Shown: positions 1-59,323 of the stretch, piece by piece
Layout: each line of letters starts with the position of its first letter
Position numbering within the stretch: position 1 is the stretch's first letter
IMG/VR virus record: IMGVR_UViG_3300044678_002668
Span: 1 to 64,000 of that record
Length of the DNA stretch: 64,000 nt
Origin: a virus
Reading direction: 5' to 3' (one strand)
Position numbers and translations under genes: made by a program
The notes under the pieces: model-generated
Told to the model about the DNA's origin: nothing
What the model saw: only the letters and a program-made list of their open reading frames with translations
Database searches by the model: none

Positions 1-89
1 GGTGTTAATAATAGCTTACGCCCCATCCTTAATTTTAAAGGTTGAGTGTATTGATTGTTTACAGTGCTTTTAATTCTTCTACTAGCCAT
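1..89 (-). CDS. 5' fragment of next virion-module gene (MASRRIKSTVNNQYTQPLKL...), runs off the window
   Basis: ATG at 89-87 overlaps the TAA of the upstream gene (TAATG), GGAG SD; frame open to position 1. Confidence 0.7.
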   Translation of the reverse strand, partial: MASRRIKSTVNNQYTQPLKLRMGRKLLLT

Positions 90-1177
90 TATTCTCCTAG
101 AGTAATACCAACAGTACCAACTCTAGTCTGACCAGCAGCAGTAATATTTAATTTAACTACATAATGAGTTAAATCTAAAATTGAAGCGGCATTAGTTGGA
201 ACTATTTCATAATAACCATTAACATCTGCTACAAGTCCAGATTGACTGATTCCAATACTATTCCCATCTTTATCATAAATAGTAAAACTAGCTGTTCCTA
301 AGAAAGCATCAATTAACTCACCGTCTCTAGTACACCACAGAGTTCCTTGAAGTTGATTTGATGCGTTAATTGAAAAAATAGCTCTTGGTTCATATTTAGG
401 ACCTGTTTCTGGATAAGTAATTGGTAAATTATAAATAATTTGCATACCATCAACAGGAATTGAAACTTTTACAGTATAAAAAGTATTGTCTAAACTTAAC
501 AAAGAAGGGATAGGAGTAATTTCAAAAAATCCTTCAGAGTCCGCTACAATGCCACTTTCTGTCATTCCTGGAACTAAGTTTCCATTGTTATCGTAAATAA
601 CATAAGTTGCAGAACCTAGTCGTGCAGGATTAGTAATAATGCCATCATTATCATTAACCCAAAAAGTAGCAATTAAATTGTTGTTTGTATTTACAGCAAA
701 AACTCCATTAATTTGAGCGTTTGTAGCTCCAGTAATACCAGGACTTGTTTGATTTAAGCTTACAGTATTATTATCCCTATTTCCAACTGCATCTACAGCA
801 CGTACACCAACATAATACCTAACTCCTGTTTGCAAAAGAGTTCCATTTGCAATGGCAAAAATATCAGCATTTAATTGAGTGGTGACAATGGCTATATTTG
901 CAGTAGAAAAAAGGTTTAAAGAATCGTTTGGTTTAACATACACTTCATATCTAATAGGATTACTTGTATCTGTAGCAGCTAACCAAGAAACTCTTAATTG
1001 ACCCAAAGGTCCCCTAGTTAAAAAATCAATACCAGCAAATACTGGAGGAATTAAATCCACAATACAAGCTTGACTTGTAGCTTGTTTTGAAGTACCAGTA
1101 ACTAACTGGTTTACAAAATCTAAGCCAAGCGTTGTATTTTGTACAATAGTTCCGCCAGATACTAATTGATTTGGCAT
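89..1177 (-). CDS. putative virion/tail protein, FN3-like N-terminal segment and two internal repeats
   Basis: 362 aa beta-rich; 'LRVSW..ATD..YEVY..YYVGVRAVDAVGN' FN3-like; repeated 'LGsAt..IYD.dGN...sGivAD..G.fEI.P'. Confidence 0.6.
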   Translation of the reverse strand: MPNQLVSGGTIVQNTTLGLDFVNQLVTGTSKQATSQACIVDLIPPVFAGIDFLTRGPLGQLRVSWLAATDTSNPIRYEVYVKPNDSLNLFSTANIAIVTTQLNADIFAIANGTLLQTGVRYYVGVRAVDAVGNRDNNTVSLNQTSPGITGATNAQINGVFAVNTNNNLIATFWVNDNDGIITNPARLGSATYVIYDNNGNLVPGMTESGIVADSEGFFEITPIPSLLSLDNTFYTVKVSIPVDGMQIIYNLPITYPETGPKYEPRAIFSINASNQLQGTLWCTRDGELIDAFLGTASFTIYDKDGNSIGISQSGLVADVNGYYEIVPTNAASILDLTHYVVKLNITAAGQTRVGTVGITLGE

Positions 1178-1179
1178 TT

Positions 1180-3522
1180 TTAACTATCCTTTAAAGAAGG
1201 TCGAACATCTGTTCCTGGAGGTGAAGTGAAGGTATAGCGAACAAGAGTTCCCACAGTATTTGGAATAGTTCCTAAAGGTAACCAGCTAATGCCATTATCA
1301 ATGGAGTATTGGAATCTAGTTGGTTGACTTGTAATAGAATCAGATACAAGTTGCGTGCCACTTAAATCAAAAGCTCTAAATGTAAGGGTGGAAGGAATAC
1401 CGCTTACATAAGCTTCTTTTAATCTAAATCCACATCTTGTTGGAGATCCGCTTGAAGAGTCATCGTAAGAGTATTCCCAGTTGTCTGAAAGTTCTTCTTG
1501 TGCTTCATAACCAATAAATAAATCAGAAACTTGAACGTGGCTTGTTCGATCAAAAGAAAAAGTTTTAAAAGAAAGTTTAAATTGAATTTGATCTGCAATA
1601 GGAATTGAAAGTTCTTGGTCCGCATCAAGTTCTGTCCAACCTCCTGAAATTGAACCAAACCCGCTTGTACGGTACTCAACCTTAACTTCACCGCCCGTTT
1701 TAACAAGTTCTCGCATGACCTGAACATCTTTTAAAATGCTATTATCAGGTAGATTAACTACTTTTGAAACAATGTAACTAACGTCAGCTAAAGTATCTGA
1801 ACGAAGATCCGCTGCAAAAACTCCTCTCTGTCCCGTAGCGCCTGACACAGCAAAAAGCCATCCTGAAGCATTTGTAAAGTTTAAATAAGGAAGTGATGGG
1901 CGAAGCTCATAAGATTCTTTGCTGGAAGCTTCAAGCCACTCCATGCAATAGTCTCCAAAAAGAGCTGTGATTTTATTATTTTCAACTTTTTTCAATAGGA
2001 ATCTAAAAGCATTCGTTGCAGCCTGACCAACAAGTACAATCGCTTGATCCAGAGAATCGGACCAACTTGCTGAGATAGTAACAGGGGCTACGATTTGCGA
2101 CGGTGTTCCAAGAAGATTTGATGTTGTAAGCGAAGGCCAAGTGGTTGTTCCTGAAGTAAGTTCATCAAGTCGGCCTAAATAAAGGTTTGTTGTGGTCGCA
2201 AAGAACGCGCACTTTTGACCATTCAAAAGACTGCCGTTCAAAGGGGCATTTACAGGATTTGCAATTGCATCAACGTCTGTTGTTGCAAGCAGGGTTCCGG
2301 CAATCGCTGGCAAGATGCTTGTTTGGTGAAGCCATTGGGAATTAGTGTAACCAAAAGCCTTTCCAAGTTCGCCCGTTCCGATGATTGAAGTGTTATTGAT
2401 TCCAGCACCACCGGCTGTAGCTGATAATTCAAAGTCATTTGCTGTTAAATTTCTTACAAAGTAAGTCGTATTAAGCGCAAAACCTGTGGGCATAACGCCT
2501 GACAAGAATTGAACTGGCTCGTTCTCAGTCAAACCATGCGCTGTGATTTGAACCTTTGCAGGCGAGGCCACGGTGATTTGTGCTGATTGTGTTGAATACG
2601 TAGGAGCAACTGAAATATCCCGAACAAAGTATTGTGGGTTAGCCGCAGTTCCGACATGGGTATAAAGGCGGTTTCCAGCAACATCAATAATCGCACCGAA
2701 AGCATCAAGCTCTTGGTTTAGCGGCTGCATTACGACGGAAGTCGGTCCAGCCGCAGCACCAATCGAAGCGCCGTTGAAAGTCGCCGACAATTCAAAGTCA
2801 TTCGCCGAAGCGTTTCGCACAAAGTATTTTGTGTTGACTACAAAAGTTGAAGCGGTCCACGCTGGACCAACTTGAGAAGTGAAATACACTTGATCGTTGT
2901 TTTGAAACCCGTGTCCAACAAAGTTGAATTTCACAGGAGTTCCAAGTGTAACGGTCATGCTTCGAGAATTTAAAGAAGCAAGACGGCCTAACTGATAAAC
3001 GGCTTTCTGATTGCTTCCTGTTGCAAAAGGAATTGTTGGAGGGGAAACTTGAGTGAAGTCGCTTCGAGCAATGTTGTTTGCCAGCAAGACTCCAGAGCCG
3101 CCAAGCAAAACGGTTCCGGTAGCAATCGCATAAATTTTCCAGCCAGATGTGCCAGTATCTAAAACCTTTAATGATCTGATTGTATGTACAATGGCAGGAG
3201 AAGCTGGGACAGCCATGTTGACACGACCAACATAAGTGTGAACACCTGTTGATTGATTAATTTCGTAGCAAAGAATTGGAAGAGCACCACCGGCAATTGT
3301 GCCAAGAACAAAAATTCGTCCATTATCACTTGCAAACATAATAGCGGTTGGAGTAACAGCTCCTACAGTATCTGAGAACACGTCAAGAAAGCGTGTTGGA
3401 CTTGGTCCTAAAACTGGCTTAGCGTCAATAGTTCTTTGTGTAACTCGACCAGCAAGAGTTGTTCGCGTTTGGTCGTAAGATGTCCCTACGCTATTTAATA
3501 AATTTAAATCTAAAAGTTTCAT
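1180..3522 (-). CDS. putative tail fibre / receptor-binding virion protein
   Basis: 780 aa T/S/G-rich; two 'HG....V.F...NT.YFVRN..ANDFELSAT' (E1-FCCH-like) repeats. Confidence 0.6.
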   Translation of the reverse strand: MKLLDLNLLNSVGTSYDQTRTTLAGRVTQRTIDAKPVLGPSPTRFLDVFSDTVGAVTPTAIMFASDNGRIFVLGTIAGGALPILCYEINQSTGVHTYVGRVNMAVPASPAIVHTIRSLKVLDTGTSGWKIYAIATGTVLLGGSGVLLANNIARSDFTQVSPPTIPFATGSNQKAVYQLGRLASLNSRSMTVTLGTPVKFNFVGHGFQNNDQVYFTSQVGPAWTASTFVVNTKYFVRNASANDFELSATFNGASIGAAAGPTSVVMQPLNQELDAFGAIIDVAGNRLYTHVGTAANPQYFVRDISVAPTYSTQSAQITVASPAKVQITAHGLTENEPVQFLSGVMPTGFALNTTYFVRNLTANDFELSATAGGAGINNTSIIGTGELGKAFGYTNSQWLHQTSILPAIAGTLLATTDVDAIANPVNAPLNGSLLNGQKCAFFATTTNLYLGRLDELTSGTTTWPSLTTSNLLGTPSQIVAPVTISASWSDSLDQAIVLVGQAATNAFRFLLKKVENNKITALFGDYCMEWLEASSKESYELRPSLPYLNFTNASGWLFAVSGATGQRGVFAADLRSDTLADVSYIVSKVVNLPDNSILKDVQVMRELVKTGGEVKVEYRTSGFGSISGGWTELDADQELSIPIADQIQFKLSFKTFSFDRTSHVQVSDLFIGYEAQEELSDNWEYSYDDSSSGSPTRCGFRLKEAYVSGIPSTLTFRAFDLSGTQLVSDSITSQPTRFQYSIDNGISWLPLGTIPNTVGTLVRYTFTSPPGTDVRPSLKDS

Positions 3523-3532
3523 TTATATCTCC

Positions 3533-4417
3533 TTAAACTATCGACCAAATACTGTTTGTTCTTTTGTATTTATTTCCATCTAAAACGTAATTAAAATCTC
3601 GTCTAATAATGCTTCCAGAAAAAGTTGCGCTTGTATAATCCACTCTAGTAATTCTTTGATTTTTAGTTCCAAAATCTGCATAAGTATATGTTTCTGTTCT
3701 ATCTTTTGAAGCCAAAACTTGTAATTTACGATTGTTAACAAAAGTTCTTTCTATTCCAGAGGGAGTACCATCCTCTGTACCAGAAATAATAAGAGGCTCA
3801 GCAACACTTACAGATCCAGTAATGGATACTGGAAGAGGGTTTATAAACTTAGTATCTAAAGAAGTTAACAAACTTTCCATTGAAGTTAAAGTGGAATTAG
3901 CTACCTGAAGTTCTGTTATTTGGCTGTCTTGTTTAGCTTCTGTAGCGGCTCCAGTTGGCAAAGGTAAAGATAGGGCTGTAATGGATATCGGAGAAGTAAG
4001 TTTACCATCAATGCTATTTAATATGGTAATTTGACTATCTTGTTTACTTTCTGTCGCTGCATTAGAAGCTAAAGGTAAAACAGTATTAATTAAATTTACA
4101 TCTAAGCCAGATTTAAGTCCCACTGTAGTGCCAGTAAATAGGATTGTGCCGTCTCCTAACCGAATACTATCATCTGTATGGTCAATAGTTAAAGCTAAAC
4201 TACCACCTGCAATATAAACGTCTAGAGCGTTTTTAGGACCTACAGGAGTTAAAGTATTTAATAAAACTCCGTCTCCAAGCCTAATACTATCCGTAGAGGC
4301 ATCTAAATCAACACTAATAGATCCAATAGATATCGTAGCTAAAACTTTTAACGATTCCGTAGGAGGATCGTAAACCTGTTTTATAACGTTACCAAAATCT
4401 AAATCTTTTGTAGCCAT
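3533..4417 (-). CDS. putative virion structural protein with internal repeats
   Basis: 294 aa; duplicated DSIRLGDG and AATE[SA]KQDSQIT segments. Confidence 0.55.
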   Translation of the reverse strand: MATKDLDFGNVIKQVYDPPTESLKVLATISIGSISVDLDASTDSIRLGDGVLLNTLTPVGPKNALDVYIAGGSLALTIDHTDDSIRLGDGTILFTGTTVGLKSGLDVNLINTVLPLASNAATESKQDSQITILNSIDGKLTSPISITALSLPLPTGAATEAKQDSQITELQVANSTLTSMESLLTSLDTKFINPLPVSITGSVSVAEPLIISGTEDGTPSGIERTFVNNRKLQVLASKDRTETYTYADFGTKNQRITRVDYTSATFSGSIIRRDFNYVLDGNKYKRTNSIWSIV

Positions 4418-4422
4418 ACAAT

Positions 4423-4433
4423 ATTATTTGTTA
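4423..4433 (-). promoter_or_regulatory. putative late promoter TAACAAATAAT
   Basis: one of five identical same-strand copies; 5 nt before ATG at 4417. Confidence 0.6.
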
Positions 4434-5206
4434 GTTTTTTTAAGTTCTTGATAATGTTTAAGAATTCTTTGTTCACGTTTTTGAAGGTCTGGATGAGCTT
4501 TGCTAAAATCCTTTTGAAAAGGAGCGTCTGGATTGCCCATATATTGCACAGCGGCCCTAACAGGATCTCCCTGTTGATTTTTAAGAAGCTTATTTATTAA
4601 ATGGTCCACTATAAGTTCTTGAGATGCTTTATCTTTTTCAAGTTTATCTGAAATTTCTTGAGGAGATAGGCCAGAATATCCTTGTTCTTTTAATACTTTA
4701 GCTAAAGGAGTGTTGCCATAACGTTTAAAAATATCCTGTACTACAATGGGTGTAATCCCATAAGTACCCACAGCACGGCTGCCTTTTTGTTCTCCAGACT
4801 CAATGGTGGGATGTCTAGTATTTTTTCCATAATTGCTTTCAGCAAATGCGATAAGATCTCTAGCAAGCTTACGAGCGTCTTTAGAAGCGTATTCAGGAGC
4901 TTTTCTACCCATAGGCATACCCGCTTTTTGCTCTTCTAAAGGCCTTGTAAGGCTTTCTAAAGAGCTAAATCTACGCATTACTGGAGTATCTTGAGTAGGC
5001 ATTTGTGGTAGTTCTAAAGGAAGTACTTTAGGAATGTTCTCCATACTAGAGCTTTCCTCTAGAAGTTGTAAGTTTTCTAAAGGATTTTTATCTGGTACTT
5101 CTATTGGACTAGCTTGTGGAGCTTCTGAAAGTTTTAAAGTGGCAAACTTTCTTTTAAATCGGTTTTCAGGCCGTACTCCAAAAATATCCGCTGGGTCTTT
5201 TTTCAT
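4424..5206 (-). CDS. lysozyme-like / lytic transglycosylase-domain virion protein
   Basis: 'LIAFAESNYG...AVGTYGIT...AAVQY' resembles SLT motifs (ES, GxxQ-like, AxxxY); low-complexity N-terminus. Confidence 0.55.
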   Translation of the reverse strand: MKKDPADIFGVRPENRFKRKFATLKLSEAPQASPIEVPDKNPLENLQLLEESSSMENIPKVLPLELPQMPTQDTPVMRRFSSLESLTRPLEEQKAGMPMGRKAPEYASKDARKLARDLIAFAESNYGKNTRHPTIESGEQKGSRAVGTYGITPIVVQDIFKRYGNTPLAKVLKEQGYSGLSPQEISDKLEKDKASQELIVDHLINKLLKNQQGDPVRAAVQYMGNPDAPFQKDFSKAHPDLQKREQRILKHYQELKKTNK

Positions 5207-5210
5207 CTTA

Positions 5211-8200
5211 TTAACTTCCCAACTGTTTCTTTAAATATTCAATTTCTTTTTCTAAATCAGACATTTGTTTTTTACTTAAACCAGGAATTTTAAGTTCTTC
5301 TATGGCGTTTTCAAGTTGTTTTTGATAGCGAGTACGCATCATTTCTTTTAAACGAGTGGCTTCTTTTTGATCTGCTTCAGAAACTTTAGGCTGTTCTTTT
5401 GGCTTTTCTTCAGCTTTAGGAGCAGGTTTTTTATAGTTTTTTTCTAAATTTTCTGTTTTATTAAGAACTTCTTTTTGTAATTTTTTTTCTTTTAAAGAGT
5501 TTTTTTCTAAATTTTCTTTTGCTTCTTTTAATCTTTTTTCTATTTCTTTAATGTTTTTTTCATATTGAGCTTTTTGTTTATAATTTTTTTGTAAAATTTT
5601 GTTTAAAGCTTTTGTATTTTTTAAATTATTTGACATTTCGTTTAAGTTTTTTGATAAAACAAGGTCTTTTTCGTATTTAATTTCATCTAAAGTTTCTTGT
5701 AAACTTTTTATTTTTTCATTGTTTCCCTTAACAACATCTTTTTGAATAGATAAAGTACTTTGTAATCTTTTTAAAGACTCAGAACTTTCAAAAGGATTTT
5801 CTTCTATAATTTCTTCAAATAAATCTTCTTCTACCTTATTAGGTTTTTTTTCAACTTTAACAGGAGTTTTGGGTAGTTCTTCTTTTTTAAGAGCCTGTAC
5901 AGGTACTTCTTCTTCAGGAGAAATAGTCTTAGTATTCTTCTTAGAATAGCGTCCCTTACCATACATAGTGGCTTTTTCAACATCTCCAGATTGTTTTTTA
6001 ACAATGTTTAGAGCTGCTTTATTTAAAATAGGACCTACATTTGGGTGATTTTTTACTAACTCTTCTTTGCTTATAACCGAAGTTTTTTTCTCAACAAGCC
6101 CTTCTTGAAGAGTTTTAAAAACCTTACTATATCCAGCCATATTGTTTTTTAGCTGATCTACTTCATTTTTGACTTTAGACCAAGTTTTAGGAGCAGTTCT
6201 TAATTGTTTATCAAAAAACTCAATTAAATCCAAAGTGGCTCTAGACAAAGCTTCAGAAGTAAGTTCTAATTGGTTTTTTTGTAAATTGGTAGAAATAAAA
6301 CCCTCAAGAGCTTGAGCATCTTTAGGTTCAAGTTTTGTTGTTTTAGCAATTTCTTTAACTTCATTGTAAAAAGGAGTGTCAAAATATCCTTTTTTACCAG
6401 CTACAGACCTACCCACCATAGTGTTAACAGTATTAGTAAGCTGGTCAAAAGCTTCTTGAGGAAGGCCTTTAGCCCTCATTTTTTCCCCAATTTCAATAAA
6501 AGAGTTATACAGGTCTTGTTTAACGTATTGAATAGCTTCATCACTATCTTGTAAAAAGTCGTCTACAATAGCTTTTTTAACTGCTTTTTTCTTTTCAGGT
6601 AAGGGAAGATCTTTTACTTCTTCTTTAATTTGCTCTTTGGTTTTTTTAACTTTAGGAGCTTTAATAGGAGCTGGTTTAGGAGCTGCCACTGGAGCAGGAG
6701 CTGGAATAGACATAGCTGGAGCAGCAACAGGAGGAGGAACAGGAGCTGAAGGTGGAGCTGTTGCAGGAGGCGTAGCTTTAGCGGTGGCATCTAAAGCAGC
6801 TTGTTCTTGCTTTAACATTTCCTGATAGAGAAGCTCTTGATCTAATTCTTTTTCTGTAGCTTTTTTAGCAGACTCTTGTAGCTTTTTTAAATCAGGAGCT
6901 TTTGTAGAAGCTTTTTTTACACCTTTTAACTCTCCTTGAGCTTTAAGCATTTCTTGATAGAGAAGCTCTTCAGGAACTTCAGCTTTAGCCTCAGCCTTAG
7001 CAACAGCTTGAAGCCCTTCCATATATTTTTTATTTAGCTCTTCTGCATAAGCCAGCTCTTTTAAAGCCTCATCGTCAACTTCTTTAGCAGCTTGTTTTTG
7101 AAGTTGTTCTAAAATAGCTTCTTGCTGTTGTTCAGAAAGCTTAAGAAAGTCTTCCTGTTTTTTTAAAGACTCTGTAAAAGACTTGTCCAAAACCTCTTCG
7201 GCTTGCTTTTTACTTAAAGCAGCCATTTCTTTCTCAATAACATCAATAGAAACAGGAGAATCTAAATCGTCAATAGACCCCTTACCAAGTCCTAAATCCT
7301 CAAACATTTTAAGAGTAGGTAGATCTTGCTCTAAAACAGTATCAGCAAAACCTTTTTCTAAAGGTACGTTTTCTTTAGTAACAGGATTACTAAGAATTTC
7401 TTTAATGGCTTTTTTAGAATCGGCTTGAAGAATTCCTTTTGGATTTTTAAAAACATCACTTAAACTATTAAAAAACTCTTCAAAGAGTTGTTCATTTTTT
7501 CCAATATTTAAATGAGCATCAGGAACTTCAGGTAAGTTTAAAAACCTTTTAGCTTTTTCTAAAATGTAAGGTCGTAAAGAAGCTTCTGGATTTGCATATT
7601 TAGGATTATTAAAAAAGACCTCAGCGGCTTCAATTTCTTTTTTAAGATCCGGTTCAATTTCTTTTAAAAGAATTAGCTCTTCTTTTTGTTTAGTGGAAAG
7701 CTCTTCAGAAACTTTATCAGTTTTAGCTTTTTTTTGAGCTGCGAGCTGTTCGTCTTCTAGCTCTTTTAATTTTTCTTCTACAGTTTTTTTAGAAGTTTTA
7801 GGAGCGGTGGCTGGAGAAGCTTTTGCATCGTATTCTTGAATCTTTTTTGCAAGCTCGTCTTTTTGAGCTTTTAAAGCAATAAGCTCTTCTTTAGTGGCAG
7901 TTTCAACACCCTCATCCAAAGCCTTTAACTTTTGTTTATTAGCAATATAGTCTAAAGCTTCAGGAACTTCTAAGTTCTTTAAGGTGGTAGTTTCAGCGTC
8001 AATTTGATTTTTAATTGCATTTAGACGAGTACGATCTGCTTGTAAAGTAGCAATGACTTCATCAGATTTTTCAGACTTTAACTGAAGATCAATCTTTTTT
8101 AATTGATTTTCAACGTCTTGAGTTTGTTTTAAATTTTCTTTTAAAGCTTTGCTAACTTCCCTAGATTGTTTAAAAGCTTCTTTTTGATTTGCAATAACAC

Positions 8201-8927
8201 CTTTAACGTCAATTTTAGAAAGGTCTTTTGCTTTTTCAACAACTTTTCCAGGAATTTCAGGTACTTTTTTAGCAGTGTCAATTGCTTTTTTTGTAAGTCT
8301 TCCAGCTTGATAGGAAGCTTTAACTAAAGCTGGATCTGTTCTTTTTCCCAGTGTTTGCAATCCTTTACCAGACAATGCACCACCAATCAAATCAGCTCCA
8401 AAAAGTCCTACCTTACCCAAAGTAGAATCCGCTTCAAATTCCGATGAAAGTCCATACGGAACATCTAAAACAGTGCTGTCAATAGCCCCCTCTTTAATAG
8501 CCTTTAAACGCTCTATAGCATCGTAATCCTCTCCAGAAAGAGCTTCTTTTGCTAATACCGCAGCACCAGCATATCCAGCTCCTAACATATTACCAGCACG
8601 CATAGCAGCATCAGCAAGAGTTTTACTTAAAGGAGACTTATTTCCATATAAAGAAAGCTCATCTTTCATTTCATCCGAGCTTACAGAAATACCTGGAAGA
8701 ACGTTTTCTTCTCTTTTAGAACGAGCCGTACCTTGTTGAGAAGCTACATAATCCTGAAGTTTTTGAAGTTCTTGTACAATGCTGCGATGGGCTTGTACTC
8801 GTTCTTCTTGAGATTCAAAGGGTTTAGAAGGCTCTGTTTCTTTTACAGAAACGGGAGCTTTAGTGCCGCTTAAAGACGCGGCAATTTCTTCATCTGTCAT
8901 CGTATCAAAATTTGGATATTTACTCAT
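5211..8927 (-). CDS. large K/E-rich coiled-coil protein, probable internal virion/ejection protein
   Basis: 1238 aa directly after portal; Pro/Ala linker; repeated ELLYQEMLK. Confidence 0.5.
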   Translation of the reverse strand: MSKYPNFDTMTDEEIAASLSGTKAPVSVKETEPSKPFESQEERVQAHRSIVQELQKLQDYVASQQGTARSKREENVLPGISVSSDEMKDELSLYGNKSPLSKTLADAAMRAGNMLGAGYAGAAVLAKEALSGEDYDAIERLKAIKEGAIDSTVLDVPYGLSSEFEADSTLGKVGLFGADLIGGALSGKGLQTLGKRTDPALVKASYQAGRLTKKAIDTAKKVPEIPGKVVEKAKDLSKIDVKGVIANQKEAFKQSREVSKALKENLKQTQDVENQLKKIDLQLKSEKSDEVIATLQADRTRLNAIKNQIDAETTTLKNLEVPEALDYIANKQKLKALDEGVETATKEELIALKAQKDELAKKIQEYDAKASPATAPKTSKKTVEEKLKELEDEQLAAQKKAKTDKVSEELSTKQKEELILLKEIEPDLKKEIEAAEVFFNNPKYANPEASLRPYILEKAKRFLNLPEVPDAHLNIGKNEQLFEEFFNSLSDVFKNPKGILQADSKKAIKEILSNPVTKENVPLEKGFADTVLEQDLPTLKMFEDLGLGKGSIDDLDSPVSIDVIEKEMAALSKKQAEEVLDKSFTESLKKQEDFLKLSEQQQEAILEQLQKQAAKEVDDEALKELAYAEELNKKYMEGLQAVAKAEAKAEVPEELLYQEMLKAQGELKGVKKASTKAPDLKKLQESAKKATEKELDQELLYQEMLKQEQAALDATAKATPPATAPPSAPVPPPVAAPAMSIPAPAPVAAPKPAPIKAPKVKKTKEQIKEEVKDLPLPEKKKAVKKAIVDDFLQDSDEAIQYVKQDLYNSFIEIGEKMRAKGLPQEAFDQLTNTVNTMVGRSVAGKKGYFDTPFYNEVKEIAKTTKLEPKDAQALEGFISTNLQKNQLELTSEALSRATLDLIEFFDKQLRTAPKTWSKVKNEVDQLKNNMAGYSKVFKTLQEGLVEKKTSVISKEELVKNHPNVGPILNKAALNIVKKQSGDVEKATMYGKGRYSKKNTKTISPEEEVPVQALKKEELPKTPVKVEKKPNKVEEDLFEEIIEENPFESSESLKRLQSTLSIQKDVVKGNNEKIKSLQETLDEIKYEKDLVLSKNLNEMSNNLKNTKALNKILQKNYKQKAQYEKNIKEIEKRLKEAKENLEKNSLKEKKLQKEVLNKTENLEKNYKKPAPKAEEKPKEQPKVSEADQKEATRLKEMMRTRYQKQLENAIEELKIPGLSKKQMSDLEKEIEYLKKQLGS

Positions 8928-8937
8928 CTATATTTCC

Positions 8938-10950
8938 TTAAGAAATAGGTAAGTTTTGAGCAAGAATAGGCAAGCCGTTAGGAGACTCAGGAAGATTAGC
9001 TGCCATTTGCTCTAATCCTTCTGCCATCTGATCTACTGGCATACCAGCCAACTCAGGAGGGATTGGACCTTCTTGAGGTGCTCCAGCATTAGGTTGTTGC
9101 TGCATCATCATGGCTGGATCTTGAATTGGCTGTTGACCCAATACCATTAAAGTGGCAGGGTCACCTTGTCTTAGCTGATTAATATGTTCCTGAATGTGAT
9201 TTAAAACTCGTGAAACTAACTCAGGATCTCTTCGTAAATCTGGATCTGCCAATACTCCACGATGTTCCCGAATATGTAGAACATGCTCGTCTACAAACGT
9301 CACCACTACCGAATCTCCTCGTACCATGGCTTCGTTTTCACCACGCACGAGAATAAGCTCTTTTTCTGTAGATTCAGTCATCACATCCAAATTACCCGTT
9401 TTAAGTACTGTAAAATACTGTTCTGGTGTAATTTTTTGGAATTGAAGAAGGTTATTTGCCATCTCAGCTCTACCCGCTTTAGTTTGAGCTAGAGGGTTAC
9501 CAAGATCTACAATTACTCGATTTACTAAATCAATATCAGCTCCTTGAAACTCTTTTAAATACGAGCGGTTAGATTGACCTACAATGGAAGCTACTCGAGG
9601 AGTTTGAGCAAAGTCTTTAAGCATGTTAATGAGACCTGTACCAACATCCTCAATGAGCTGTACATAACTCTGCTGAAGACCGGACATAAATTGAAGAGCC
9701 ATACTTTGAACAAGAGCTAAAGAGTTACCCGAACGAAGAGATGCTTCTGGATTACCTCGGGCTACAGAGTTCACTCCAGAAACTGTTTCCATCTCTTTAA
9801 TTAGAGTGGCAATCAAATTATAAGTTTCTGCTGGAGTGGCAGTGGGGTTAAACGCAGTGGGAGGACCTACTTTAGAATCATACTCAATGACGTTTAAACC
9901 TCCAAATAGCTGACTTGTAACAATATTACTATCTTGAGGTACTAAAAGATTCTGCACTCCAAAAGCCGTATTATTACTTAATGCGGCACTATAAAGAGAG
10001 TTTACCGCTTCCTGAAGAGGAAGTAAGTCAAACATTGGAGTGTAACCATAAGGAGTTCCTAGGATTTCACCAGGAACAATGCGATAGATGGGTAGGTCTC
10101 GATAAGGCATAGGACCGTCATATAAATTGATGTTCTCGCTTAAGAACATCATATAACGACCTTCAGGCAAAGATTCTGTACGTTTATGATAGAACTCATA
10201 AACAGGTACGTCTTCTGACTCGTCTTCCGTCACAACGCCATCAAAACGAAAACGGAATACTTCCCCTTTAGTGGGCAAACCTTTAATTTTATCTGCTTGA
10301 TCTGGATACTTGGCCACTAAATCCCATTTGTTTTTCCAAGTGCGACATACAATCCAATTGTGATTGAAGTCTTCTTTAGATCCATCAAACATCACATCAA
10401 AAGGAGAAAGGTTAGAAAAAGATACGTCTCCTTCGTAAATGGGAGTATCGTCAATATAGTCCCAAATTTCACCAGAAGTGGCATCCCATTCCATTTTAAC
10501 GTAGCCAGCACCCAATACAATGGCGTATTCTACAGCTTTACGTAAATACTTTTCTAGGCGCTTTTCACGCATATAATAGTCTAACAAACCATCAGCTAGC
10601 TTGGTTTGTACAATGGATTTATAATCTGTGTTTGTGGCACGAGCAATCATGGCGGGCCTATTAGCCGTCACCATTACCAACATATGCTGAGCAATGTTAT
10701 GATAGTGGTTTACAGCGAGATGGGTAATCTCACCTTGCTCTCCACCAAAAAAGATCTTGTGACCATCAGTGCCAAAATAGGCTCCATGATAGGCACGCCA
10801 ACTGTCACGAATTTTTTCTACATATCCATTACGAGAAAGTCCGTCAAAGAAATATTTAGACTTTCCCAAAAGGGACGAAGAAAGTTTTTCAGGATCTTGG
10901 GCGGCAAAGTATTGCGACTCCAAGATGGTTTTAACGTCATCTGCCATCAT
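8938..10950 (-). CDS. portal protein (P22/podovirus-like)
   Basis: 670 aa right after terL; portal-like patterns (GxGYVKMEWD, LSPFDV, SGVNSVARG); Q/P-rich tail. Confidence 0.85.
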   Translation of the reverse strand: MMADDVKTILESQYFAAQDPEKLSSSLLGKSKYFFDGLSRNGYVEKIRDSWRAYHGAYFGTDGHKIFFGGEQGEITHLAVNHYHNIAQHMLVMVTANRPAMIARATNTDYKSIVQTKLADGLLDYYMREKRLEKYLRKAVEYAIVLGAGYVKMEWDATSGEIWDYIDDTPIYEGDVSFSNLSPFDVMFDGSKEDFNHNWIVCRTWKNKWDLVAKYPDQADKIKGLPTKGEVFRFRFDGVVTEDESEDVPVYEFYHKRTESLPEGRYMMFLSENINLYDGPMPYRDLPIYRIVPGEILGTPYGYTPMFDLLPLQEAVNSLYSAALSNNTAFGVQNLLVPQDSNIVTSQLFGGLNVIEYDSKVGPPTAFNPTATPAETYNLIATLIKEMETVSGVNSVARGNPEASLRSGNSLALVQSMALQFMSGLQQSYVQLIEDVGTGLINMLKDFAQTPRVASIVGQSNRSYLKEFQGADIDLVNRVIVDLGNPLAQTKAGRAEMANNLLQFQKITPEQYFTVLKTGNLDVMTESTEKELILVRGENEAMVRGDSVVVTFVDEHVLHIREHRGVLADPDLRRDPELVSRVLNHIQEHINQLRQGDPATLMVLGQQPIQDPAMMMQQQPNAGAPQEGPIPPELAGMPVDQMAEGLEQMAANLPESPNGLPILAQNLPIS

Positions 10951-10972
10951 AAATCCTTTGTAAATCCCTAAG

Positions 10973-10983
10973 ATTATTTGTTA
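10973..10983 (-). promoter_or_regulatory. putative late promoter TAACAAATAAT upstream of portal
   Basis: identical 11-mer overlapping terL stop, 22 nt before portal ATG. Confidence 0.6.
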
Positions 10984-12447
10984 ATTGGGTTTAGATTTGC
11001 CCTTAAAGAGCTTAGATCCAGAAAAGACCTTTTTAATGTGTTCAGTGAACTTTTTGTCTTGAGGTTTTTGACCTTTTCTCCAAAAAGCATTTTCTTCATC
11101 CACGTCTCTAAAGTCATACCCAGCAGGATAGGGGTTCTTATTTTGCTTTACATGTCGTACTAAATACTTTAAAGCGTCAACTCCGTCAAAGTGGCCATAA
11201 CCTTCAGCTCGAATATAAGAGGTTCTAGCTCTATTCCAAGTAGCATTAGCTAAATGTGCAATGAGATTGGTACATTTAGGATTAATGATGATGCGTTTTT
11301 GTTGCAACCACATCCTAAGATTGTTAAGGGCGGCATTAGCTTCGTCCTTATCAGCAGGAGAAAACCTAATTCCATGCATCCTATCTAAATCATTGATTAA
11401 AATTAAGTTATTATCGCAAACTCTTAAATAGGGGCTTCTAACTTCATTTGTAACTGGATCAGTAAAGTTATTAGCCTCCACTGCCCTGATGGTTTCAGCT
11501 AACTTGTCTGTAGTCATTGACTTACCATTAAGAACATATTCGTCTTCAATGATGAGCTTACCGTTTTTAAAATCGTAATAGGCCACTAAACCAAAAGTTA
11601 AATCTTTAAAACCAATATCCATTCCAACATATACGTCATAAAACGAAGGACGTTTCCATTCCGTAACAATGGATTCACGCAATTCTTGAGTAAATTCAGG
11701 TACTACGGCATCTTCTTGAGAAATCAAAAAGACACATTCATATTCTCGTTTAAACTGAATATCTTCTTTACCCATTGGATAAGAAGCTATGATTTCTTTT
11801 AAATCTTCTTCAGTGATGCGAGGATTATCGTATACTGTACGAGTAATGAGACTTTTATTAATCTCAGCTTGGCGTTTAAACTCTTCAAAATCGTGTCCAG
11901 GCTCTCTGGGAGGAGTGGAAGAGAGGATTACCTTACCTTTTGTAGTGAGCGTGGTGGGAATTAAGATGGACTTTACTAAATAATCTAAATCAGAACAGAA
12001 ACCTGCCTCATCTACAATGCAAAGAACAGAACTGCCTCCTCGTAAAGAGTCAGCACTTCCATTATCAGAACCCGCTAATTGAAGTTCTGATCCATTTGGA
12101 AAGTAAAAAATATTGTCTTGAGAGTTAAAAGTGGGTTTAAGCTCTTTAGGGCAGTCTTCGGTAATGGTACGAACAATGGGACGAATGTCCCGCTTAATCA
12201 TCTTACCTTCAGGAGCTACATATTTGACAACAGAATTCTTATTTTGAAGACAATACTCCATTGCCATAAGAGTAAGCAGGAAAGACTTACCCATACGACG
12301 AGAAGCCGAAAGAACTTGTACCTTTTGCCCCATCCTTTTAAGTTGACTATAAATGCCAAGTTGATTAGGGTCTAATTTCCAATGAAGGTGGCCAAGTTCC
12401 CAAAGCTTTCTTACCGCTTCTTTTTTAGATATTACTACCTGGTTCAT
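10981..12447 (-). CDS. terL: terminase large subunit
   Basis: Walker A SRRMGKS, Walker B IVDEAG, coupling motif SSTP, nuclease GMDIG and HFDGVDALKY. Confidence 0.95.
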   Translation of the reverse strand: MNQVVISKKEAVRKLWELGHLHWKLDPNQLGIYSQLKRMGQKVQVLSASRRMGKSFLLTLMAMEYCLQNKNSVVKYVAPEGKMIKRDIRPIVRTITEDCPKELKPTFNSQDNIFYFPNGSELQLAGSDNGSADSLRGGSSVLCIVDEAGFCSDLDYLVKSILIPTTLTTKGKVILSSTPPREPGHDFEEFKRQAEINKSLITRTVYDNPRITEEDLKEIIASYPMGKEDIQFKREYECVFLISQEDAVVPEFTQELRESIVTEWKRPSFYDVYVGMDIGFKDLTFGLVAYYDFKNGKLIIEDEYVLNGKSMTTDKLAETIRAVEANNFTDPVTNEVRSPYLRVCDNNLILINDLDRMHGIRFSPADKDEANAALNNLRMWLQQKRIIINPKCTNLIAHLANATWNRARTSYIRAEGYGHFDGVDALKYLVRHVKQNKNPYPAGYDFRDVDEENAFWRKGQKPQDKKFTEHIKKVFSGSKLFKGKSKPN

Positions 12448-13281: not shown

Positions 13282-13310
13282 TTGCAAAATCCCCACAAAT
13301 CTTCTATAAT
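13282..13310 (+). promoter_or_regulatory. sigma70-type promoter of clpP-like/thyA unit
   Basis: TTGCAA-17 nt-TATAAT. Confidence 0.7.
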
Positions 13311-13319
13311 TATTTGTTA
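13309..13319 (-). promoter_or_regulatory. putative late promoter TAACAAATAAT heading the terminase operon
   Basis: identical 11-mer in divergent intergenic region, overlapping the opposite -10 box. Confidence 0.6.
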
Positions 13320-17220: not shown

Positions 17221-17252
17221 AAAAAAAAAGGGAGAGGCTTTCGCCCCTCCCC
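17221..17252 (-). terminator. rho-independent terminator
   Basis: minus strand GGGAGGGGC-GAAA-GCCTCTCCC followed by T9, just after stop at 17260. Confidence 0.9.
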
Positions 17253-17259
17253 GTTTCAT

Positions 17260-17604
17260 TTATCCGATCTTCGCTCGTCGCTTTGGCTCAGGACTTGACT
17301 CGCCCTTCGCCTTGGCTTTATAAGCCGCTTTGTTAATCGCTTGGGCCTCAAGGTCTGCTTTTCGTGCCTCATCGTGTGATCCGTCTTCCAGCTCCGTGTC
17401 GGCTTGGACGATCTTCGAGGCGACCTCGAGGAGCTTGATCCACGCCTCACGACCGATCACCGCTTGGCCGCGTGAAAGTTTCACTCGAACCGCTCCGTTG
17501 GCGCAATAGACCGCAACATCCGAATTTATGTCGAGCAACATACGACCGTTGTCTTCTGTTTTTACTTCGAACTGAGAACCTGAAACCTGTTTGAGTTTTG
17601 CCAT
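17260..17604 (-). CDS. stand-alone early gene, hypothetical protein
   Basis: 114 aa with own promoter, TAAGGAG SD and terminator; GC-richer than neighbours. Confidence 0.8.
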   Translation of the reverse strand: MAKLKQVSGSQFEVKTEDNGRMLLDINSDVAVYCANGAVRVKLSRGQAVIGREAWIKLLEVASKIVQADTELEDGSHDEARKADLEAQAINKAAYKAKAKGESSPEPKRRAKIG

Positions 17605-17657
17605 CTGGCCTTTATCTCCTTAGTGTCGCGGTCTTAATTGACCGTTTCGACATACCC

Positions 17658-17686
17658 AGAATAGCGCATCTAATTTTGAAAGTCAA
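17658..17686 (-). promoter_or_regulatory. leftward sigma70-type early promoter
   Basis: TTGACT-17 nt-TATTCT. Confidence 0.8.
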
Positions 17687-17745
17687 GTAATGGATTACGA
17701 ATCTCATTTTGAGACAGAGTGCGTTGTGCGCACCAAGTAAAAAGA

Positions 17746-17952
17746 AAGGGGGCACTGTTAAGGCAGAGTGTTTTAGTAAAGGGGGCACTGTTAAGCTTAC
17801 ACACTCGCGCAAGAAGAAACGCGTTACGCGCATGAAGGGGGCACTGTTAAGAAAATAATTTTGTTTCAATTTGAGATTATTTAATTATATGAGTATGATA
17901 TTATTTTTTATTCCCTTCCCTTGGTTTGATTCAGATTAGGGGCAGTGTTAAG
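17746..17952. repeat. iteron-like direct repeats AAGGGGGCACTGTTAAG
   Basis: exact copies at 17746, 17779, 17835; variant AGGGGCAGTGTTAAG at 17938; AT-rich tract 17852-17910. Confidence 0.85.
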
Positions 17953-18163
17953 TATCAGATTGATATTTAGCTAGGGGATTAGTGTTTTCGCATAATCAAA
18001 TCACTATCTTTTCTCTCCTCATTCTCTCTCCTCATTATCCTTCATTTCTCATGTCCCTGACAGTAGGTATAATAACTTATATCCTAAATATAAATAATAA
18101 TCATACTTAATCTTTGCCCGACCCGAGTCGTTCCGCAGGGTTACGCCACACGAAAAAAATCGT

Positions 18164-18193
18164 TTGACACGACCGGCGGCTCGGTGCTATTCT
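18164..18193 (+). promoter_or_regulatory. rightward sigma70-type early promoter
   Basis: A-tract, TTGACA-18 nt-(TGc)TATTCT. Confidence 0.8.
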
Positions 18194-18250
18194 GGTTTTG
18201 GTCGGCCGCTCCCTCGCACTAATTAAGCCCGCTCTAATAAGGAGGTTGTT

Positions 18251-18523
18251 ATGTTATACAGAGTTATTCCTTTCTGGTATAAGCATGAGCAGTTCTTTAA
18301 TGTATATGACGAGGTGAATAAGCGCACTGTTAAGAGCTTCTTTCTCTCTAAGGTTGAAGCGGATCTCTATATTAGAAAGCTTCTTGGTGAGGACACTATC
18401 ATTCAAGATAAGCCCGCTTCTTTCCATAAGAATCCTTGGAAGTCTTGTAGAGAGAAGCGCCTTCTTAGAGAGAAGGCTTTGAATACTAAATTGGATAATA
18501 TTAAGAAGAAGTTTGCCCTTTAA
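18251..18523 (+). CDS. early hypothetical protein
   Basis: 90 aa, TAAGGAGGT SD. Confidence 0.8.
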   Translation: MLYRVIPFWYKHEQFFNVYDEVNKRTVKSFFLSKVEADLYIRKLLGEDTIIQDKPASFHKNPWKSCREKRLLREKALNTKLDNIKKKFAL

Positions 18524-24943: not shown

Positions 24944-24951
24944 GGGGAACT

Positions 24952-25095
24952 ATTTTTTTAATAGAAAGACTTATTAGAATTCTCTATAGAAGTTCCACGT
25001 ATAATGTGGAGATTGAATTTTTAGTTACTTATCAAGGAGGTTGGTCTCCTTTAGTTAGAACAACTTTGATGAGATTGTTATATGACGTTTATTGA
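24952..25095 (+). CDS. micro-protein C3 with ATT start (xFLI..., 47 aa)
   Basis: AGGGGGA SD, ATT codon, open frame fills the gap exactly. Confidence 0.45.
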   Translation: MFLIERLIRILYRSSTYNVEIEFLVTYQGGWSPLVRTTLMRLLYDVY

Positions 25096-27094: not shown

Positions 27095-27252
27095 CTAATT
27101 TAGAATACAATATGTGGGATGAATGTAATGTTATATCTGAACATAATGTTTGGGTAGAACACACTACTCCTGAAAATAGAAATCATTTTCAAGCTTCTTT
27201 TACAAGTAACTGGTCTTGGTGGATTATGAAAACAGGGGAATATATTACATGA
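27091..27252 (+). CDS. micro-protein D7 (MTNL..., 53 aa)
   Basis: GTGA overlap. Confidence 0.7.
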   Translation: MTNLEYNMWDECNVISEHNVWVEHTTPENRNHFQASFTSNWSWWIMKTGEYIT

Positions 27253-27584
27253 AATACGAAAAGTATAAAGATTTCACACAGTTAACAGGATCGTTAGAGG
27301 ACATTGCTCTTGGTCTTGAGGATGAGCTAGTTAATGTGGACATTAAAGTCAAGCGTAAGAACTTCTTGGAGTGGTTGGGAGGAGATGAAGTTATCCTAGA
27401 ATCTGAATGGCCTCTTTATTGGGGCTCATCCTTTACTCTTAAAGGAGTATTGGAACCTCAAGAAGGAACCTGGGAAGTGGAGTTAGCGGTTACTGAGGGG
27501 GGAGATGAGGTGAGTGTATACGATATGGGGAACACTCTCTATTCCTACTTAGACGAACTCTTATCAGATTACACTAATACGTGA
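27249..27584 (+). CDS. acidic hypothetical protein
   Basis: ATGA overlap at 27249; E/D-rich, 111 aa. Confidence 0.7.
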   Translation: MKYEKYKDFTQLTGSLEDIALGLEDELVNVDIKVKRKNFLEWLGGDEVILESEWPLYWGSSFTLKGVLEPQEGTWEVELAVTEGGDEVSVYDMGNTLYSYLDELLSDYTNT

Positions 27585-27599
27585 CATCCTGTTTATAGC

Positions 27600-27995
27600 T
27601 ACCCTTGCGCTTCGTGCTTTTAGGCACTACGCTTTTGGCGTTTGCTTAGATACACTAACCCTATTACGGGACTTTAAGTTACGCCGTTCCTTTTGGGAAC
27701 ATTGGCGGGACATATAGCTTAGAACCCTTATGGGTTCAGTCTAGGGTGGCTTATGCCACCGAGCTGTTCAAGAGGGTAGAGCCTCTCTAGGGTAGTATGC
27801 CCAGCTCTTGACCACCTGTGGTTAGGCTAGTAGAATATATATCTACAGTCGGTTAACCTAACTCTTTGGGCGGGCCTTGCGCCTTCACTATATGTCCAGG
27901 TTCAGACCCTTGATTGTCCTTTAAGAAGGGGCACTAGTAGTCTAACCTGTTTGGCCTGGCCTCATTAGCTTCGGCGTCTAATGGGTAGGTCTTAC
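27600..27995 (+). ncRNA. candidate large structured non-coding RNA/ssDNA element (strand from G-U pairs; leftward promoter argues for minus)
   Basis: no ORF >=60 aa; more than 12 stems incl. GGACATATAG(27708-17)/CTATATGTCC(27888-97), GAACCC-ttat-GGGTTC, GGTGGC-ttat-GCCACC. Confidence 0.65.
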
Positions 27996-27999
27996 TATT

Positions 28000-28028
28000 A
28001 TTGTAATATTATTTGTTACTTAAGTAAA
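28000..28028 (-). promoter_or_regulatory. leftward promoter(s) facing the structured element
   Basis: TAACAAATAAT at 28018-28008 nested in TTTACT-17 nt-TACAAT. Confidence 0.55.
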
Positions 28029-28053
28029 GAATAAAAAGAGTAAAAGGAGTGAC

Positions 28054-28245
28054 ATGATTATCTTAGATTACTTTGATGGGTCTCTTATTAAAGAGTTAAG
28101 ACGAGAGATTAAGAACTTACAATTTCAACAAGAATATATGAAACAGTTTGAAGATATTTATGTAGGTACTCGAGACAGTTTTTTAAGTATTGGAATAAAT
28201 TATATTTCTGACCATTATAAGAGGTATATGGATACATGGTTTTAA
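28054..28245 (+). CDS. micro-protein E1 (MIIL..., 63 aa)
   Basis: AAGGAG SD; RDSFL motif. Confidence 0.75.
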   Translation: MIILDYFDGSLIKELRREIKNLQFQQEYMKQFEDIYVGTRDSFLSIGINYISDHYKRYMDTWF

Positions 28246-48394: not shown

Positions 48395-48685
48395 ATGTCC
48401 AAGAGTAAGAGTCATAAAGAGGGTGAAGACTTACGACAAGAAATTAAAAAATGGAAGACCTATGCTCGCCATCTTGAAAAGCGGTTAAAACAGTATGAAA
48501 AATTAGATCATTACTTGGAAGAGGCTCTAGAAACTGTACATGAATCTGAAGCTTCTAAAGAACATGAAACATCATATAAAGATCCTAAATGTCCAGACTG
48601 CCATAAAGGTACTCTACGGGTATTGGATTTAGGAAGGTTTACCTATCATGCGTGCTCGCACTGCTCGTACCGCAAAAAGATCTAA
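48395..48685 (+). CDS. coiled-coil + Zn-ribbon protein
   Basis: CPDC...CSHC; AAAGGA SD. Confidence 0.65.
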   Translation: MSKSKSHKEGEDLRQEIKKWKTYARHLEKRLKQYEKLDHYLEEALETVHESEASKEHETSYKDPKCPDCHKGTLRVLDLGRFTYHACSHCSYRKKI

Positions 48686-59312: not shown

Positions 59313-59323
59313 ATTATTTGTTA
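59313..59323 (-). promoter_or_regulatory. putative late promoter TAACAAATAAT
   Basis: identical 11-mer 11 nt before ATG 59301. Confidence 0.6.

Follow-up and report, generated by a model that had tools for sequence, protein, structure and literature searches.

The non-coding island at 27585-28053 of the phage DNA analysed here is tentatively identified as a late-transcribed gene for a structured, minus-sense non-coding RNA of ~400-440 nucleotides (nt). The DNA in question (the window) comprises bases 1-64000 of a 79,502-nt IMG/VR phage record (IMGVR_UViG_3300044678_002668), which is estimated to be 95% complete and is labelled G000; coordinates past 64,000 are also given on a piece labelled L357, where G000 75494 corresponds to L357 11494. 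Structural, packaging and lysis genes occupy the minus strand (89-12447 and 51183-79449), and the plus strand carries a single block, 13351-51181, which constitutes the early module. The island lies in that block, beside a minus-strand copy of a late-promoter-like motif, TAACAAATAAT. A first-pass annotation had seen a paradox in this arrangement, i.e. a late-type promoter firing antisense into an element whose plus strand was taken to be the one that folds, and had offered several ways out; absent from its list was the simplest reading, that the promoter's own minus-strand transcript is the structured RNA.

An orphan late-promoter-like motif borders an ORF-free island

The 79.5-kb genome contains ten exact copies of the 11-mer TAACAAATAAT, every one of them on the minus strand, against 0.19 expected by chance; first-order Markov genomes never held more than two. 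Nine of the ten precede late genes, including those for the major head protein, portal and endolysin and the gene that opens the terminase-side operon. Eight stand before minus-strand start codons at distances of 5-35 nt, often with the Shine-Dalgarno sequence next in line, and another precedes the major head protein gene by 163 nt. TAACAAATAAT is a real, strand-specific, late-gene-associated and promoter-like element; it is presumed to act as a promoter, and its timing is called late on account of the genes that it precedes. Copies within the window include the following.

28008-28018, minus strand: orphan copy, the only one of the ten inside the plus-strand early module
13309-13319, minus strand: head of the late super-operon, in the divergent late/early gap
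10973-10983, minus strand: 22 nt upstream of the portal gene start
4423-4433, minus strand: 5 nt ahead of gene 3533-4417
59313-59323, minus strand: 11 nt ahead of gene 57382-59301

In its extended form the motif is uninterrupted, its TA(T/G)AG-like end lying just ahead of the Shine-Dalgarno sequence. Because a purine occupies base 5 past the motif in seven of the ten copies, with a ribosome-binding site following at once, and because the Shine-Dalgarno sequence lies directly behind the motif at the other copies, transcription is expected to start ~5 nt after it. The orphan copy matches at 11/11 positions and is followed by ATT, which also stands behind four other copies, and its transcript probably starts at ~28003 on the minus strand. 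The first-pass annotation had located this copy at 28018-28008 and had aimed it into the structured element with a start at 27990-28003; the location was confirmed and the predicted start falls inside that range. It had also nested the motif in a minus-strand sigma-70-like site, and this part fared less well. TTTACT (28028-28023) and TACAAT (28005-28000), 17 nt apart, are indeed present at 28000-28028 (9/12 matches), but sigma-70-like sites occur here at chance level (nine were counted in 3 kb, where shuffles gave 11.5 +/- 4.1, and 54 in 20 kb, where 56.5 were expected), so the overlay adds nothing and is not counted as evidence.

Downstream of the predicted start lies DNA that is unusual for this genome.

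27585-28053, no strand assigned: ORF-free island of 469 nt, without an open reading frame (ORF) of at least 35 amino acids (aa) on either strand

Apart from a 138-nt gap at 24944-25081, the island is the only gap of at least 120 nt in the window without an ORF of at least 35 aa. It is flanked by the plus-strand genes 27216-27584 and 28054-28245, and its GC content is 0.45, rising to 0.49 in the core, compared with 0.38 for the genome. The orphan motif sits ~10 nt from its right edge. The probability that chance alone puts a minus-oriented copy anywhere in the 38 kb of the early module is ~0.05; since this copy abuts the only long ORF-free island of the window, the joint chance is ~1e-4 and coincidence is unlikely. 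The occurrence of ~400 nt of GC-enriched, structured, ORF-free DNA amid gaps of less than 140 nt furthermore suggests that the structure itself has been selected. No repeats or iterons were found within the island, and 12-mer matches between the element and the rest of the genome are at chance, with no excess of complementarity. An intron was considered and rejected, as the ORF upstream is closed by a stop codon, the one downstream starts at an ATG with a Shine-Dalgarno sequence of its own, and neither group I nor group II models match. The second ORF-free gap of the genome, between capsid and endolysin genes at G000 73849-74065 (L357 9849-10065), was also folded; its 217 nt showed no excess structure on either strand (z +0.5 and -0.1).

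The minus strand folds at least as well as the plus strand

Folding energies were compared with those of dinucleotide shuffles and expressed as z-scores, and base pairs with a probability >0.7 were taken as confident. The whole island (27585-28053) gave z-scores of -4.0 on the plus strand and -3.9 on the minus strand. The corresponding values were -4.2 and -5.7 for 27596-28003, -3.3 and -4.3 for 27565-28003, and -3.7 and -4.5 when DNA parameters were used. The raw minimum free energy (MFE) is lower on the plus strand (-162 vs -141 kcal/mol), and this is due to composition: the plus strand is the G+U-rich one and its shuffles fold better as well. Forty confident pairs are common to both strands, all 40 of them Watson-Crick. 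Among the strand-specific confident pairs, G-U accounts for 8 of 52 on the plus strand and 5 of 46 on the minus strand, which does not discriminate. The predicted structure contains the following elements.

27596-28003, minus strand: predicted structured RNA body (z -3.9 to -5.7; 50% of unpaired bases are A)
27708-27897, both strands: central multibranch domain, closed by a perfect 10-base-pair (bp) Watson-Crick helix, 27708-27717 with 27888-27897
27722-27737, 27745-27760, 27761-27807 (with 27771-27786 inside) and 27830-27846, both strands: hairpins within the central domain
27682-27707, both strands: hairpin outside the 10-bp helix, with confident shared pairs
27983-27988 (5' half) with 27599-27604 (3' half), minus strand: 6-bp end-closing helix, confident in the minus-strand ensemble only

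Relative to shuffles, then, the minus strand folds at least as well as the plus strand, and the puzzle of a promoter that reads the wrong strand disappears. The claim that a G-U pattern marks the plus strand as the folding one finds no support in the z-scores, which are equal or favour minus, or in the G-U counts, which are uninformative. The paradox built on that claim was to fall if the minus strand folded equally well, and for folding energy it does. The lesson for method is that a lower raw MFE and more G-U pairs on a G+U-rich strand are effects of composition and no guide to the functional strand.

Other features lean towards the minus sense. The end-closing helix would join the two ends of the RNA. 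In the minus-sense ensemble A makes up 50% of the unpaired bases and U 20%; in the plus-sense ensemble U makes up 47% and A 24%. A-rich single-stranded regions are typical of structured RNAs. The same A-rich unpaired signature is seen in four capsid leaders of the phage group, on their known sense strand, and in the non-coding stretches of the relatives when these are read in the promoter's sense. The element has an AT skew of -0.22 in plus-strand reading; every one of the 176 plus-gene windows has a higher value, and among minus-gene windows the element ranks at the 7th percentile.

The motif and its non-coding stretches in related phages

There is no cultured relative of this phage; in the phage database, the best matches to its TerL and polymerase are 31-33% identical. 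Relatives with 63-83% TerL identity were seen only in Logan/ENA assemblies, and the relatives compared here share 45-54% TerL identity. Each of the latter has its own version of the motif, which emerges as a top-ranked strand-biased word in the same kinds of position.

TTAACAAGTTA: relatives G006 and G007
TTAACAACTAT: relative G011
TTAACAACT(TAGTAT): relative G005
TTAACAAGTA: relative G002
TTAACATAT: relative G004

A TAACA(A/T) core is common to all of these versions (G002, G004, G005, G006, G007 and G011), and in each of G002, G004, G005, G006 and G011 a copy precedes the capsid gene with a leader of 131-176 nt. The motif is, on this comparison, a family-wide promoter-like late element. The sense strand of the G000 capsid leader, 75494-75667 (L357 11494-11667), folds somewhat better than shuffles (z -2.6). 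In G007 the capsid gene, at 61072-63240 (L105 ~1070-3240), is apparently interrupted after ~50 codons by ~0.8 kb carrying a 195-aa ORF, and no group I intron model matched. Repeated words were also noted in two other relatives: in G014 (L262-L266) the 9-11-nt word CACTTGATTCC and its variants occur at least 44 times (e.g. 69911-70206), partly in tandem-like arrays with a spacing of ~120-156 nt, and in G013 (L271-L275) AAACTCCTC occurs 24 times on one strand and never on the other and CCTCAGTTG 18 times, possibly as different promoter or terminator words of that lineage.

The motif invites comparison with T4, whose late promoters have TATAAATA at -10 and are read by gp55/gp33 with the host polymerase. 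As in T4, the element is short and A/T-rich, has no -35 partner, lies directly upstream of late genes and is repeated many times on the late strand. Agreement between AACAAATA and the T4 motif TATAAATA is nevertheless limited to 6/8 positions, and the conserved core is TAACAA plus ~5-10 further bases, with differences between relatives. Unlike in T4, the Shine-Dalgarno sequence lies only 4-7 nt behind the motif, so that transcription must start ~5 nt after it, and no gp55-like or sigma domain was detected by Sigma70_r2 and Pfam scans, a gp55-specific model not having been run. Hairpin promoters of the N4 type were rejected as a model, the largest ORF (1478 aa) being far below a virion polymerase of ~3500 aa. 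A literature search on the motifs gave nothing relevant, and the 15-mer promoter word, scanned in IMG/VR, gave only single random matches.

The orphan arrangement, i.e. a lone late motif followed by 0.4-1.2 kb of ORF-free DNA in an early region, recurs in three relatives (G005, G006 and G011). G006 has a late-motif copy at 17620 on the plus strand among minus-strand early genes, followed by ~450 nt without ORFs. Its counterpart in G011, at 3987 on the minus strand among plus-strand early genes, is followed by 0.4-0.7 kb without ORFs and then by a 107-aa HNH endonuclease ORF on the same strand. The sole plus-strand copy in G005, at 48558, matches that phage's extended 15-nt motif and precedes ~1.2 kb without ORFs; its orientation agrees with that of the neighbouring genes, which argues for a stand-alone RNA gene over a purely antisense device. 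The stretches of G006, G011 and a further sequence, L358, are mutually homologous in collinear blocks.

G011 (L106) 2867-3990: promoter-led stretch
G006 (L098) 17620-18075: promoter-led stretch
L358 ~6700-7350, minus strand: promoter-led stretch

Blocks shared by these three include TAATAG..AAAA.CAAGG, TCAA.TTGA.AC and ATCCCAA..TGATACG.CAC, and a block of this family with 17 specified bases was found nowhere else in IMG/VR. An Rfam scan of the relatives' non-coding stretches gave no match. When MAFFT was applied to the G000, G006 and G011 stretches together, the alignment proved unreliable and played no part in the structural analysis. The position of the arrangement relative to the MoxR/VWA genes is not conserved among the relatives.

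One short sequence links these stretches with the element of G000.

27571-27584, minus strand: 14-nt block GTCACGTATTAGTG, ~420 nt downstream of the predicted start, overlapping the stop codon of the convergent plus-strand ORF

Near-identical GTCACGTATTAGTG blocks lie at the 3' side of the stretches in G006, L358 and G011, at a similar distance from the promoter in G000 and G006 (~380-420 nt), and a second short word ~21 nt beyond the block is common to G000 and G011. The shared block is suggestive of common descent, not proof of it.

Genome context and homology searches

Genes of the plus-strand block encode ClpP, thymidylate synthase, a MoxR/VWA pair, RNR, an exonuclease and a T7-type replisome (primase-helicase and family A DNA polymerase), and the block also holds many tiny ORFs. 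Metagenome-assembled genomes (MAGs) that bin related TerL contigs are labelled Flavobacteriaceae or Bacteroidia and also Proteobacteria, Saccharibacteria, Bdellovibrionales and Methanomicrobiales; such labels are a weak hint to the host.

The element itself was searched for in several ways. BLAST found no match in the phage database or in 25 related IMG/VR records, and searches of IMG/VR and metagenomes by way of the flanking proteins gave no homologue. The two-arm pattern of the 10-bp helix had no match in IMG/VR and 70 in metagenomes, all unrelated and mostly to a repeat element of the human gut. That recurrent element of 185-186 nt, matched by the palindromic pattern GGACATATAG...CTATATGTCC in many human-gut assemblies (L287-L356), holds several GGACATATA-type repeats and is unrelated to the phage. 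A single-sequence covariance model of the 194-nt core detected nothing in 44 relative records or five MAGs, while its positive control worked. Rfam at gathering thresholds gave no match in the 64 kb (GOLLD, ROOL, group I and II introns, tmRNA, RNase P and 6S included), and at E-values up to 10 it gave two noise matches only in 27400-28200. No tRNA or tmRNA genes were found.

A proposed minus-sense RNA gene and its alternatives

Under the favoured reading, the polymerase or factor that recognises TAACAAATAAT ahead of the capsid, portal, lysis and terminase genes would also start at ~28003, late in infection, and would produce a GC-rich minus-sense RNA of ~400-440 nt. The ends of this RNA would pair through the 6-bp helix and the 10-bp helix would close a five-hairpin core; A-rich loops and linkers would stay exposed and the short conserved block would follow at the 3' side. 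Its fold may give such an RNA its function, that of a scaffold or of a decoy for some host or phage protein, beyond any complementarity to early messages. We infer the ends of the transcript, its late firing and its function as an RNA from the features described above. The proposed molecule resembles the large phage RNAs of as yet unassigned function, namely the ~800-nt RNA of ICP1, GOLLD and ROOL (PMC7567579, PMC12286853), in that an ORF-less gap in a phage genome would give a highly structured RNA of several hundred nt. Those RNAs accumulate during lytic growth. The one proposed here has no sequence or structure match in Rfam, GOLLD and ROOL included; it would be smaller (~0.4 kb) and has no tRNA neighbours.

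A wider form of the proposal is possible and distinctly more doubtful: the phage group would set aside one of its late-promoter copies to drive a large, dedicated structured RNA gene amid the early genes, and G000 would provide the founding member of a new class of ~0.4-kb late RNAs, marked by the end-to-end helix and the core of five hairpins and acting as a scaffold or decoy (e.g. in assembly or counter-defence) and not as antisense. The body of such RNAs would be near-wholly different between the G000, G006/G011/L358 and G005 types, and the short 3' block would be kept in three of four phage lineages.

Several observations weigh against a minus-sense RNA gene. No homologue of the G000 element was found by any of the routes described, so that there is no covariation for any helix or for either strand, and beyond the 14-nt block the relatives' stretches are not detectably homologous to it. 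The stretch of G011 could instead be the leader of the HNH endonuclease ORF behind it. No cognate sigma factor or RNA polymerase turned up for TAACAAATAAT: the genome has no match to Sigma70_r2 or to the T7-type polymerase family PF00940, for which control genomes were uninformative, and 20 early-module proteins of 90-281 aa, taken from both strands, had no Pfam match. No minus-strand intrinsic terminator was seen downstream, which leaves the 3' end undefined and may allow the transcript to run on antisense. The plus strand also folds significantly, its UUCG-capped hairpin with a U-rich tail could be the terminator of an early transcript, and it would be transcribed at least by read-through if the flanking plus-strand genes share an operon. 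Finally, the arguments from composition for the minus sense are indirect.

The strongest alternative, though an unlikely one, is cis-antisense control or interference, in which the late promoter fires against the early super-operon and the transcript or the polymerase traffic silences early genes from 27584 leftwards, the structured first 400 nt serving to stabilise the 5' end or to insulate the two directions. There is direct precedent in LUZ19 and all phiKMV-like phages, which keep a phage-specific promoter antisense in the early region, where it is proposed to block transcription into early genes (PMC10914365). The likeness extends to the layout, since LUZ19 P001 is also one copy of the phage's own middle/late promoter motif placed in the early region opposite to the genes, in a position conserved across relatives (PMC10914365). 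The orphan copies of G000, G006 and G011 are likewise antisense to their neighbours, and the missing minus-strand terminator means that transcription could run for kilobases antisense. Against this, LUZ19 is known to encode the single-subunit RNA polymerase that reads its 20-bp promoter motif, and no polymerase or factor was identified here; the P001 transcript overlaps coding genes, whereas a dedicated 400-nt structured island follows the promoter in G000, and an antisense promoter needs no such GC-rich, ORF-free DNA. Unlike in LUZ19, the G005 unit with its 1.2-kb stretch is co-oriented with its neighbours, and the fold excess and A-rich loops suggest selection on structure. The late antisense RNA proposed by the first-pass annotation thus survives as a rival to the minus-sense RNA gene and not as the best reading.

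Somewhat less probable again is a plus-sense molecule. The island would then be a structured stretch between cistrons of an mRNA made early or in the middle phase, working as terminator, attenuator, processing site or long 5' leader for the genes from 28054, and the minus-strand motif would either regulate it, as the first-pass annotation had it, or be idle. The lower MFE and a z-score of about -4 speak for this reading, as do the location of both flanking genes on the plus strand and two features of that strand.

27808-27836, plus strand: sigma-70-like TTGACC-17-TAGAAT in the middle of the element (10/12 matches; one of the eleven best matches in 20 kb), a possible promoter for the downstream genes
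27953-27991, plus strand: long imperfect (bulged) hairpin at the right edge, with a C(UUCG)G tetraloop at 27969-27976, followed by a T-rich tract

The tract has 5 T in 8 nt and includes the complement of the motif, and with the hairpin it may form a plus-strand terminator; on the minus strand the same sequence would be the 5' hairpin of the RNA. A terminator scan that required a simple stem did not call this hairpin, and terminator-like sites, like sigma-70-like ones, occur at chance frequency. The lower MFE is explained by composition, as noted above, and the combination of 47% U among unpaired bases with an AT skew outside that of every plus-gene window would be unusual for a plus-sense functional RNA in this genome.

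It is improbable that the island acts as DNA, for example as a replication origin at which transcription from the promoter opens the duplex or leaves an R-loop primer and the hairpins form in single-stranded DNA. Promoters that fire into a non-coding stretch are known from ColE1, whose primer, RNA II, is a ~550-nt multi-hairpin molecule, from T4 oriF and oriG and from the T7 primary origin; the phage has a T7-type replisome, and with DNA parameters both strands beat their shuffles. Unlike those origins, the island lacks an AT-rich unwinding element and iterons, and its RNA would not be G-rich: GC content past the promoter is raised (0.49 vs 0.38), and C would slightly outnumber G in the RNA, a composition that disfavours stable R-loops. 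The R-loop or origin reading of the first-pass annotation therefore has no positive evidence, and a better candidate exists at 17.7-18.3 kb, where five 18-nt direct repeats accompany an AT-rich tract. That region, 17229-18334, contains a GC-rich (~55%) minus-strand gene inside the plus-strand module (17260-17604; 114 aa, with a strong Shine-Dalgarno sequence and no Pfam match), which ends in a strong intrinsic terminator (17252-17229). Upstream of the gene lie five copies of the direct repeat AAAGGGGGCACTGTTAAG and its variants (17745-18334), and the region also has, besides the AT-rich tract, a TTGACA-18-TATTCT site; it looks like a regulator with its operators or an iteron-type origin.

There is slightly less still to recommend the idea that promoter and island have no functional tie, the motif copy being fortuitous or decaying and the island the remnant of an inserted or selfish element. 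One minus-oriented copy in the early module would have a probability of 0.05, the island is GC-richer than the genome, like the foreign-looking gene 17260-17604, and no homologue was found in the searches made. The exactness of the copy and the ATT behind it, its closeness to the only long ORF-free gap, whose edge is no more than ~10 nt away (joint chance ~1e-4), and the recurrence of the arrangement in three relatives argue otherwise. Reverse transcription of the minus transcript into a functional complement, which has nothing in its favour beyond the suggestion of the first-pass annotation, can practically be dismissed: its proposed search of the rest of the genome for a reverse transcriptase found no PF00078 match in the whole 79.5-kb record, itself an estimated 95% complete, while control genomes gave the expected signal, so a phage-encoded enzyme is effectively refuted and only one of the host is conceivable.

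Implications

Should the minus-sense RNA prove real, the short list of large phage non-coding RNAs would gain a late-expressed, structured member of several hundred nt, with a clean genetic handle in the form of a single, exactly defined promoter copy. The lone reversed late promoter in an early region, documented so far in phiKMV-like phages, recurs in an unrelated, uncultured group, and in this group it is tied to dedicated non-coding DNA.

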